Shown in pieces: positions 4,031 to 6,566 of a stretch of DNA of 12,302 nt (the first letter of the stretch is position 1; the number at the start of each line of letters is the position of its first letter). The notes under the pieces were generated by a model. The model was not told the DNA's origin. It made no database searches and worked only from the letters and a program-made list of their open reading frames with translations. A program made the translations under genes and the position numbers. Source of the stretch: a virus (taxonomy: Duplodnaviria; Heunggongvirae; Uroviricota; Caudoviricetes); IMG/VR virus record IMGVR_UViG_2896607866_000011; one strand, 5' to 3'.

Positions 4031-4540
4031 TTATACGGCTTTTTTCGCATCTTGTGGTTCCAACAAAGGAGCTACAGGCTCTTCCTGTTTATGAACACCA
4101 TACATTGACAAAATCTCTTGGCGAGTTTCTGGAGGTAATTTATGCAGCGCCAAAGCTGTTTGTAGTGTTTGGCGATCAATACCCAGCGTTGCCAATAGGG
4201 TGTCAACGGAGATGGAGGGGCGTTCTTGCATTAATCCGGAAAGCCCATATTTAGCCATGTTTAGCTCTATCTCTCGGACTTCATTTTCTCCTAGTTTATT
4301 GATTAACAGGGAGAACATTTTCAATGTATCAGCATTCATTTCTTCGATAGCAATTTTTTGCATAGCCGGTATTGCCGGGATATATTCAACCCCAGGCCCG
4401 CGACGCCCTTCTTGTGAACGCTTCGGCCATCCCTCTTTCTTTGCTCGTTTATGCACCCCCTGTATTGTCCCAGGCATTCCATCCAGTTCAGTAATTTGTT
4501 TGGGTGTCATCCACTGGTTTATCTCATTTGCGCTTTTCAT
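4031..4540 (-). CDS. c: Mu-family repressor (c / Repc-like), 169 aa, transcribed leftward
   Basis: Position and orientation as Mu c; N-terminal motif DGMPGTIQGVHKRAKKEGWPKR...GVEY is the Mu repressor / MuA domain I-alpha winged-helix signature; sequence diverges from Mu c as I recall it. Confidence 0.8.
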   Translation of the reverse strand: MKSANEINQWMTPKQITELDGMPGTIQGVHKRAKKEGWPKRSQEGRRGPGVEYIPAIPAMQKIAIEEMNADTLKMFSLLINKLGENEVREIELNMAKYGLSGLMQERPSISVDTLLATLGIDRQTLQTALALHKLPPETRQEILSMYGVHKQEEPVAPLLEPQDAKKAV

Positions 4541-4702
4541 AAACTAAGTTTACCAGATTTATCTATATAAAAATCAATGGATTACAAAATAAACCACATC
4601 AACTGATATAAACCGATTGGGTTTATTTGATTTATATGGCAATGTATAAAACAGATAATCAAGACGAATTATTTGTTTTGATAACCCTTTATCATACGCA
4701 AT
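4541..4702. promoter_or_regulatory. Early operator region between c and ner (divergent Pc/Pe promoters, operator/enhancer repeats)
   Basis: AT-rich 160-bp spacer between divergently oriented c and ner with repeated ATAAACC / TTTAT motifs; equivalent position to Mu O1-O3 / internal activation sequence. Confidence 0.55.
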
Positions 4703-4957
4703 ATGGTTGGTGTGCGAAAGATGAGTAACGATTGGCATCGGGCCGACGTGATTGCGGCCCTCAAAAAAACAGGAACCCCTCTGGCAAAATTGTCCAGACG
4801 TTCAGGTTATTCAACCGGGACGCTTGCAAATGCATTAGTCAGGCCATGGCCTAAAGGTGAACGCATTATTGCTGACGCCTTAAACATGAAACCTGAGGAA
4901 ATTTGGCCTAGTAGATATCTAAGGGATCACAATGAGAGAGTGGATATCAGCAATTGA
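4703..4957 (+). CDS. ner: Ner-like small DNA-binding regulator (negative regulator of early transcription); true start may be ATG 4721
   Basis: Translation contains [16 protein letters not shown]...TLANAL...[19 protein letters not shown], closely resembling Mu/D108 Ner and the E. coli Nlp family; overlaps the start of A by 26 nt. Confidence 0.82.
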
Positions 4958-6566
4958 ATGCATGGGTTTATCTGGTTTACCTGGTTCATTAATGGGGGTT
5001 CACAAAAGAGCTCAGAGAGAAGGATGGCTCAAGAGAAGAAGAGAAGGAATTAGAGGGGTTGCTTACGAATACCATATATCTTCTCTTCCTAACATTGCTC
5101 GAGCTGAAGTTTTGCTCCAACAAGGAAAATTTAAAACCAGTCAGGGATGTTTTGAAATCGCCCGCCCCACGCTGGAAGCTCATGATTATGATCGTGAGGC
5201 ACTATGGAGCAAATGGGATAAAGCCAGCGATTCCCAGCGCAGCCTGGCTGAAAAATGGTTGCCCTCAATTCAGGCCACAGACGAAATGCTGAACCAGGGG
5301 ATTTCAACGAAAACGGCTTTTGCGACCGTTGCAGGGCATTACCAGGTCAGCGCATCCACTTTGCGGGACAAGTATTACCAGGTACAGAAGTTTGCGAAGC
5401 CTGACTGGGCGGCTGCACTTGTTGATGGACGTGGAGCATCCCGTCGCAATGTTCACAAAAGTGAATTTGACGAGGATGCCTGGCAGTTTCTGATTGCAGA
5501 TTATCTGCGACCGGAAAAACCCGCCTTCCGCAAATGTTATGAGCGTCTGGAACTGGCAGCCCGCGAGCATGGCTGGAGTATTCCCTCCCGTGCCACGGCC
5601 TTTCGCCGGATTCAGCAACTGGACGAGGCAATGGTTGTTGCCTGTCGTGAAGGTGAACATGCACTGATGCATCTGATACCGGCACAGCAGCGAACTGTGG
5701 AACACCTGGACGCCATGCAGTGGATCAACGGCGACGGTTATCTGCATAACGTCTTTGTACGCTGGTTTAACGGTGATGTGATCCGTCCGAAAACATGGTT
5801 CTGGCAGGATGTGAAAACCCGAAAAATTCTGGGCTGGCGCTGCGATGTGAGCGAGAACATTGATTCAATTCGCCTCTCGTTCATGGATGTTGTGACTCGC
5901 TACAGTATCCCGGAGGATTTTCACATCACCATTGATAACACCCGTGGTGCTGCGAATAAATGGCTGACGGGAGGCGCGCCCAATCGCTACCGCTTTAAGG
6001 TAAAAGAGGACGATCCAAAAGGACTGTTTTTACTGATGGGTGCGAAAATGCACTGGACAAGCGTTGTTGCCGGTAAAGGCTGGGGCCAGGCAAAACCTGT
6101 TGAACGTGCTTTCGGTGTTGGTGGGCTTGAGGAATACGTTGATAAGCATCCGGCACTGGCTGGCGCATATACGGGGCCAAATCCGCAGGCAAAACCTGAT
6201 AACTATGGCGACCGCGCTGTTGATGCAGAGCTGTTTCTGAAAACCCTTGCCGAAGGTGTGGCGATGTTCAATGCCAGAACAGGCCGTGAAACAGAAATGT
6301 GCGGGGGCAAACTCTCGTTTGATGATGTTTTCGAGCGTGAATACGCCAGAACGATTGTGCGTAAGCCAACCGAAGAACAAAAACGGATGCTGTTACTGCC
6401 TGCCGAGGCGGTGAACGTTTCACGCAAAGGCGAGTTTACGCTTAAAGTTGGCGGCTCCCTTAAAGGCGCGAAAAACGTTTATTACAACATGGCATTAATG
6501 AATGCCGGAGTGAAAAAAGTTGTGGTCAGATTTGATCCACAGCAGTTACACAGCACGGTTTATTGA
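4932..6566 (+). CDS. A: Mu-type DDE transposase A, 3'-truncated (544 aa versus about 663 aa); stop codon supplied by the first bases of the adjacent IS
   Basis: From about residue 75 onward near-identical to MuA as recalled ([23 protein letters not shown] ... [15 protein letters not shown]); N-terminal about 75 aa differ from Mu A; ORF ends where the IS600-like element begins (TGA at 6564..6566). Confidence 0.9.

Follow-up and report, generated by a model that had tools for sequence, protein, structure and literature searches.

A defective Mu-family prophage whose repressor, Ner, and transposase tip are unlike those of Mu and D108: evidence for a distinct immunity type

Introduction

Which immunity type does a Mu-family prophage remnant carry when much of its sequence closely matches Mu and its early control region does not? 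We addressed this question for the IMG/VR virus record IMGVR_UViG_2896607866_000011, a stretch of 12,302 nucleotides (hereafter the window) that contains a defective Mu-family prophage. Positions 4031-5160 hold the genes for the repressor c and the small protein Ner and the start of the gene for the transposase A, which is truncated here (A'). An original prediction, made from the letters of the window, had claimed that this region is not the Mu prototype, that it may confer a D108-type or an uncharacterised immunity specificity, and that the repressor of the dead prophage could still give superinfection immunity.

In Mu, the transposition enhancer overlaps the repressor operators O1-O3 and is built from two clusters of A-binding sites with a site for integration host factor (IHF) between them (PMC3145075). 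Similarity between the N-termini of repressor and transposase has already been published for Mu and D108, as two titles listed in PMC3820752 indicate (Harshey et al., 1985; Mizuuchi et al., 1986).

We conclude that region 4031-5160 is very probably the immunity and early-control module of the prophage, with standard Mu architecture, and that its cassette is an allele distinct from those of Mu, D108/SfMu, and PhiR68_1 and shared only with rare, unstudied prophages of E. coli and Salmonella. An operator specificity different from those of Mu and D108, and heteroimmunity towards both phages, would be expected from this arrangement.

Results

A diverged cassette within a Mu-like backbone

We compared c, Ner, and A of the window by global alignment with their homologues from Mu, D108, SfMu, PhiR68_1, the SE11 prophage, and the UMNF18 prophage (Table 1). 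Pairwise alignments to Mu and D108 confirmed that c, Ner, and the N-terminus of A diverge from Mu within a Mu-like backbone. BLASTP aligned c with Mu c over its full length (35% identity, E=9e-30; 38% in the global alignment) and with D108 c at 28% identity (E=1e-15; 32% in the global alignment).

Table 1. Amino acid identity of the window proteins to their homologues, with D108 against SfMu for comparison.
Protein	Mu	D108	SfMu	PhiR68_1	SE11 prophage	UMNF18 prophage	D108 vs SfMu
c	38%	32%	34%	36%	44%	85%	90%
Ner	63%	55%	55%	52%	38%	99%	99%
A residues 1-80	49%	54%	52%	49%	45%	86%	94%
A residues 81-540	99%	98%	98%	98%	98%	98%	

The limits of the divergent segment were placed by BLASTN. DNA similarity to Mu-like phages ends at ~4139, within c and 36 codons before its stop, and returns at ~5100-5134, which corresponds to residue ~57-68 of A. 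Between these breakpoints (~4140-5119), nucleotide similarity to Mu, D108, SfMu, PhiR68_1, and the SE11 prophage was undetected, and the left flank and A core around the cassette are 96-99% Mu-like. The divergence that had been predicted was thus present, with limits narrower than proposed: the diverged part of A does not reach about 75 residues, and that of c is confined to codons 1-133, its last ~36 codons being Mu-like. The identities and breakpoints agree with the proposed Mu/D108-style mosaic, in which a c-ner-A-tip cassette is exchanged within a conserved backbone. The coordinates and peptides quoted in the original prediction were accurate, and the A' peptide corresponds to residues 14-47.

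c, Ner, and the transposase tip

The predicted integrity of c was borne out by an open reading frame (ORF) of 169 amino acids without interruption. In its product, a winged-helix DNA-binding domain at the N-terminus (~residues 8-55) is followed by a C-terminal domain that ends in KKAV, as in Mu c and D108 c. The protein matches PF02316, the "Mu DNA-binding domain" (E=4.5e-12, 46.9 bits against a cutoff of 23.3), and, among structures in the PDB, the DNA-binding domain of the Mu repressor (1G4D/1QPM, E=2e-10) and the I-alpha domain of MuA (1TNS, E=6e-7). It is a winged-helix repressor homologous to Mu c.

Gene order and orientation are the same as in Mu, with PF02316 in both c and A, PF13693 in Ner, and homology over the whole length of c. 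By contrast, Mu c is longer (196 amino acids), and the c proteins of D108 and SfMu, which show the same kind of mosaic, are similar in length to that of the window (174 versus 169 amino acids). The early operon opens with ner, which encodes a small DNA-binding protein of the Ner type. An alternative in-frame ATG at 4703 would give an 84-amino-acid Ner; in relatives the upstream frame is closed. The A' product retains PF02316, PF09039, PF02914, and part of PF09299. Its I-alpha domain (~4932-5130) is type-specific, and the remainder is 98-99% Mu-like.

Relatedness of c and A and the presumed recognition helix

The N-termini of c and A had been described as paralogous. BLASTP of c against residues 1-100 of A supported this description, with 24/60 identities (40%; E=4e-16), and both proteins match PF02316; within this one phage, the I-alpha domain of A and the DNA-binding domain of the repressor are therefore paralogues. 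This paralogy is an established hallmark of the family, which the window confirms and which is not new; for D108, the 1986 paper by Mizuuchi et al. (listed in PMC3820752) indicates in its title that the two N-termini are alike within each phage.

In an alignment of five immunity types, the presumed recognition segment was type-specific and common to c and A of one phage. Its sequence is GVHKRA in the window, compared to GV(H/I)Y(R/V)A in Mu, NITRKA in D108, and (S/A)ISRKA in PhiR68_1. The longer helix segment is GVHKRAKKEGW in c of the window, compared to GVHYRANVQGW and GVIYVAKKQGW in c and A of Mu and NITRKAVAEDW and NITRKAQREGW in c and A of D108. By hand count, the helix segments of the cognate c and A match at 10/15 positions in the window. 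We considered whether clean co-variation of c and A could serve as proof of a specificity apart from that of Mu. This reasoning holds for D108 and PhiR68_1, and it fails to separate the window type cleanly from Mu.

The c-ner control region

The c gene (4540 to 4031) and ner (from 4721) diverge across a spacer of 180 base pairs (bp; 4541-4720), compared to 169 bp in Mu and 185 bp in D108. The spacer is 72% A+T. Judged from its motifs, its layout resembles that of Mu, with sequences peculiar to the type. An IHF consensus lies between two candidate clusters of repeats, the repeat being ATAAAC(C) in the window and CTTTTY in Mu, and the placing of the O1-like cluster relative to this consensus mirrors the Mu enhancer as published (PMC3145075). 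Of seven related spacers that were checked, five (UMNF18, L025, L028, L042, and L043) also contain the IHF match, as does an S. flexneri copy, and Mu has its equivalent. A promoter scan gave a rightward promoter-like site at 4631-4659, whose -35 element is overlapped by the O2-like cluster, and leftward promoter-like sites at 4718-4691 and 4695-4668.

The repeats are more frequent than expected. ATAAACC occurs seven times in the window (1.8 expected), four of the seven falling within 4516-4626, and ATAAAC occurs three times in the spacer (0.29 expected; P=0.003). ATAAAC was enriched in every spacer of the window type (P=0.0002-0.004 compared to shuffles) and had no copy in the spacers of Mu, D108, SfMu, PhiR68_1, or SE11. 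Other types have recurring words of their own, with four copies of CTTTTY in the Mu spacer (none in the window spacer) and five of AAATCA in that of D108. ATAAACC copies also lie inside A, at 4965-4971 (within the I-alpha coding sequence) and at 6557-6563 (directly before the IS600 junction), and may be due to chance.

Downstream of the O2-like cluster, a 12-bp inverted repeat at 4649-4678 was the single match in the window when two mismatches were allowed, with 0 expected. From its position, and by analogy with the Ner sites of D108 and Mu, this repeat is probably the Ner operator. Compared to Mu, the predicted site has 12-bp arms, a 6-bp spacer, and another sequence.

By analogy with Mu, c and A would bind the same operator/enhancer here. 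In this model, the winged-helix domain of c would occupy the ATAAAC(C) clusters that flank the IHF site and silence the rightward early promoter; A, through its paralogous I-alpha domain, would bind there too and use these sites as a transposition enhancer; and Ner would bind the inverted repeat at 4649-4678.

Distribution and relatives of the cassette

The cassette type was present in one of 5,426 complete E. coli genomes (UMNF18, 88% DNA identity), 85 of which have a Mu-like left region; none of the 5,426 covered at least 80% of the whole window. Among 50,697 phage records, no c was more than 36% identical, and the type was absent from the records of isolated phages. This result, together with the lack of ATAAAC and ATAAACC from the control regions of Mu and D108, fits the second option of the original prediction, an uncharacterised specificity. 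Only 10 relatives were obtained from a search of 5.8 billion protein clusters; those with a name belong to S. flexneri, Salmonella enterica, and E. coli, and the closest cluster is named S. flexneri. The exact c protein was indexed in 6,687 blocks of a public assembly collection, and species-representative genomes gave two matches, both with identical c and one from an S. flexneri strain. On the contigs of relatives, c-ner-A-B stand in a prophage context, and two IMG/VR contigs of ~36 kb carry the type. The immunity type is present in apparently complete prophages, yet rare.

The UMNF18 prophage and a few Salmonella prophages have the same type, with c 85-88% identical to that of the window. 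In UMNF18, the core of the c DNA-binding domain is identical, and the 180-bp spacer is 94% identical and has the same IHF site and repeats. In the Salmonella copies, residues 1-55 of c are 93-95% identical. The C-terminal domain of c in relatives has diverged from that of the window by ~16-20%. The relatives from UMNF18, Salmonella, and IMG/VR retain A and B at full length, and the Ner-type repeat is perfect in most of them, in contrast to the window, which is a remnant with two mismatches in this repeat.

The UMNF18 prophage (L032; 3087-3118 kb) spans ~31 kb within yphC. Its tail-fibre region is not that of Mu, its sheath gene is truncated, and its annotation includes two frameshifts and neither gin nor inverted tail-fibre genes of the G-segment type; the prophage may be defective itself, or the assembly may contain errors. 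In the repressors of P0007 and P0010 (L029 and L030), residues 1-55 are 82% and 73% identical to the window and the C-terminal domains 49% and 35%. The spacers of both loci keep ATAAAC repeats, and the Ner-type inverted repeat of L030 differs in sequence.

In the literature searched, we found neither this immunity type nor a remnant in dpiA (the gene that the prophage interrupts) described; the sole related report was the SfMu paper (PMC4406740). According to that paper, many S. flexneri strains contain Mu-like remnants, detected by hybridisation and reported without sequence detail, and PCR for c-ner of the SfMu/D108 type was negative in these strains. The negative PCR is consistent with a different immunity cassette in those remnants.

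Alternative immunity types

Could the cassette belong to one of the known types after all? A D108/SfMu-like remnant, whose repressor would give immunity to D108 and SfMu, was the other option of the original prediction. Its appeal lies in the overall mosaic pattern, which is what distinguishes D108 from Mu, and in reports that SfMu circulates in S. flexneri, where Mu-like remnants were found by hybridisation (PMC4406740). A member of this type would be expected to be ~90% or more identical, as D108 c and SfMu c are to each other (90%). However, c is 28-32% identical to D108 c and 30-34% identical to SfMu c, the values for Ner (55%) and residues 1-80 of A (52-54%) are similarly low, no nucleotide similarity extends across 4140-5099, and the presumed recognition helix (GVHKRA versus NITRKA) and the spacer motifs differ. 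This assignment was abandoned and is scarcely credible. The PhiR68_1 and SE11-prophage types were rejected as well, with c 36% and 44% identical, respectively. Another alternative is that the cassette has diverged in sequence and still functions as Mu type, so that c would recognise Mu operators and be homoimmune, or partly cross-immune, with Mu. The c protein of Mu is among the closest from named phages (38%, next to 36% for PhiR68_1 and 44% for the SE11 prophage), it is closest in the DNA-binding core (50%), the residues G-V-H-x-R-A-x-x-x-G-W of the helix are in common, and the C-terminal ~36 codons of c are Mu-like. Against this, nucleotide similarity to Mu is lacking in the control region, CTTTTY has four copies in the Mu spacer and none here, ATAAAC is absent from Mu, and Ner is just 63% identical, with a predicted site of different sequence. 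Mu type was therefore rejected (c 35-38% identical), and continued recognition of Mu operators is improbable, if less so than a D108-type specificity.

The reading that we prefer, a distinct allele with its own operators, has evidence to contend with. The same 50% identity to Mu c in the core of the DNA-binding domain weighs against it, as does the hand count over the 15-residue helix segment, in which Mu c matches A of the window at 9/15 positions and its own A at 8/15; so far as the protein sequences go, partial cross-recognition with Mu could occur. The assignment of operators to c and the I-alpha domain of A would rest on motifs that are short and AT-rich, in a spacer of 72% A+T; the pattern of two clusters and an IHF site would fit the Mu operator/enhancer. 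The inverted repeat attributed to Ner is perfect in UMNF18, L025, L028, and L029, and its right arm has two mismatches in the window. Moreover, S. flexneri copies of the spacer have a 9-bp deletion and 3-4 substitutions in the O2/promoter region, and c-ner-A' was lost from other copies of the remnant, so that the module is dispensable and may be decaying. These last two observations are described next.

Differences among copies and residual function

The c protein was identical in all loci read, and all of these lie at the same pagP-dcuC-dpiA site; one locus with the identical c we take to be S. flexneri 8401. Compared to the window, the S. flexneri copies (L007-L016) differ in the spacer by a 9-bp deletion of one GATTTAT/GGTTTAT repeat unit and by 4-5 substitutions, all within 4600-4681. 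Elsewhere, c (510 bp) has no non-synonymous and 1-2 synonymous differences, and A' (1.6 kb) has 2-4 changes. In the comparison with L009, 6/9 events in 2.6 kb fall in the 180-bp spacer (6.8% of the length), for which our own binomial estimate under uniformity is ~1e-5. With the prophage relatives as outgroup, most spacer changes are derived in S. flexneri, and the change at 4616 is derived in the window lineage. This clustering could reflect selection on the switch, slippage in the AT-rich repeat array, or conversion from another prophage. Six further, Shigella-like loci (L017-L022) carry the remnant at this dpiA site, with the left end up to 3153, IS600, the G segment, com, and mom, and have lost c-ner-A'. 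In these loci, an additional IS1 lies in S' at the equivalent of 9873-9881, and the breakpoint is the IS1 insertion point of the window.

Whether the repressor still acts is a separate matter. The prophage itself is incapable of transposition or growth, because A lacks its C-terminal ~120 residues and the genes from A to the tail fibres are missing. Any present-day role is therefore limited to repressor-mediated immunity against the same rare phage type. Such a residual function is plausible, and, as far as sequence allows a judgement, the odds of c being expressed and capable of conferring immunity may be roughly even. Mu-type repressors act in trans at low levels. The ratio of non-synonymous to synonymous substitution rates (dN/dS) of c is 0.16-0.20 compared to the prophage relatives with full-length A and B, in which c has the same length, and 0.07-0.09 for the DNA-binding domain alone; these values mostly reflect evolution while the phage was alive and say little about the period after its decay.

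The main competing view, that the module is an inert fossil in which c is open only because too little time has passed for decay, and is unexpressed or without effect, stands just short of an even chance. The prophage has been wrecked by IS1, IS600, the deletion in gin, and the loss of the genes between A and S; related genomes have lost c-ner-A' at no obvious cost; lineage-specific changes are found in the Ner site and in the O2/promoter region; and cognate phages are rare. In addition, the copies compared (the window and the S. flexneri loci) have diverged by only ~0.1-0.5%, so that an intact 510-bp ORF is expected by chance. The lack of non-synonymous differences in c between lineages, where 1-2 synonymous ones are found, argues against a fossil, with weak statistical power; the promoter-like sites and operator-like repeats that remain also count against it. 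Going further, lineages of the S. flexneri type may have kept c by itself, as a gene for immunity to rare, unisolated Mu-like phages, with its control region remodelled under selection, a scenario that we regard as unlikely.

The prophage remnant and its setting

The features of the window are listed in Table 2. Judged from the ORF listing and similarity searches, the host segment is a Shigella-type chromosome. The defective prophage occupies 2917-11958, within the response-regulator gene dpiA (citB). Its left end starts with TGTATTGATTC at 2917, and its right end finishes with GCCGCTTCA at 11958, directly before CCCAG. These are ends of the Mu type (TG...CA), 96% identical to those of Mu, and CCCAG stands outside both (2912-2916 and 11959-11963), which makes it the 5-bp target duplication expected from Mu transposition. 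The insertion is clean and interrupts dpiA, so that the DpiAB two-component system is inactivated in the window lineage and in S. flexneri.

Table 2. Features of the window.
Feature	Position	Strand	Description and basis
pagP	1-585	minus	ORF listing/similarity searches
dcuC	1047-2534		ORF listing/similarity searches
dpiA, C-terminal 100 codons	2575-2877	minus	
Mu-type left end (attL region), first part	2917-3153	+	begins TGTATTGATTCAC; 95.7% identity to Mu 1-235
IS1 (768 bp)	3154-3921	+	insA/insB ORFs; junction sequences
Remaining Mu-type left-end sequence	3922-4030	+	3' of c stop codon
c	4031-4540	minus	intact 169-amino-acid ORF; peptide DGMPGTIQGVHKRAKKEGWPKRSQEGRRGPGVEY is residues 20-53
Divergent immunity cassette	~4140-5119		c codons 1-133, operator region, ner, A I-alpha domain; BLASTN breakpoints
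O1-like cluster of ATAAAC(C)/GTTTA(C/T) repeats	4516-4562		overlaps c start codon; predicted sites for c and A I-alpha; motif positions
IHF consensus AATCAATGGATTA (WATCAANNNNTTR)	4572-4584	+	between the repeat clusters; sole match in the 12.3-kb window
O2-like cluster	4589-4636		ATAAACC 4589, ATAAACC 4608, GGTTTAT 4620, GATTTAT 4630
12-bp inverted repeat AAACAGATAATC-N6-GATTATCTGTTT	4649-4678		predicted Ner operator
ner	4721-4957	+	78 amino acids; PF13693, E=4e-29; PDB 1NEQ (Mu Ner), E=3.5e-24
A' (truncated transposase)	4932-6566	+	544 amino acids; cut at ~residue 545/663 by IS600 (junction sequence)
IS600 (IS3 family)	~6565-7828	+	99.9% identical to elements annotated "IS3-like element IS600 family transposase"
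Right part of remnant	7829-11958	+	G segment, gin, com, mom, intact Mu-type right end (BLASTN vs Mu 31000-36717)
dpiA, N-terminal part	11959-12302	minus	beyond prophage right end

Close resemblance of the ends to Mu had been part of the original prediction. It holds for the sequence (left end ~96% identical to Mu 1-235), with the qualification that the left end is split at Mu position ~235 by IS1, which is flanked by the 9-bp duplication CAACCAGGC at 3145-3153 and 3922-3930. Identity to Mu 230-447 is 88% over 3922-4139. This IS1 is missing from the otherwise colinear S. flexneri loci that were examined, which makes it a lineage marker. IS600 cuts A and joins A' to the tail-fibre/G-segment region; none of the genes that lie between A and S is left. 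The constant part of S was removed by IS600 (7829-10915 region), and gin has an internal deletion of ~380 bp that leaves 65 codons; with both losses, the invertible segment is locked in one orientation and the tail-fibre genes are left as orphans. Relative to the Mu reference, the G segment is inverted. The com and mom genes (10991-11843) are still open. An Rfam scan of the window gave no matches.

Discussion

Mu and D108 are the textbook pair in which repressor, operators, and enhancer-binding transposase tip are kept matched as one exchangeable cassette. The cassette of the window is a further allele of this well-known mosaic system and not a new mechanism, and it leaves the current understanding unchallenged. 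Counted with its rare E. coli and Salmonella relatives, the remnant would add at least one natural specificity, with a boundary in A at ~residue 57-68 and with candidate operator repeats. It may thereby offer a third or fourth matched set of protein and DNA in which to follow the co-evolution of winged-helix recognition in c and A, and Mu-based tools could gain from it an orthogonal immunity/enhancer cassette. Little follows in practice for Shigella: the insertion documents the inactivation of dpiA, and the repressor would provide, at most, immunity to an uncommon phage type.

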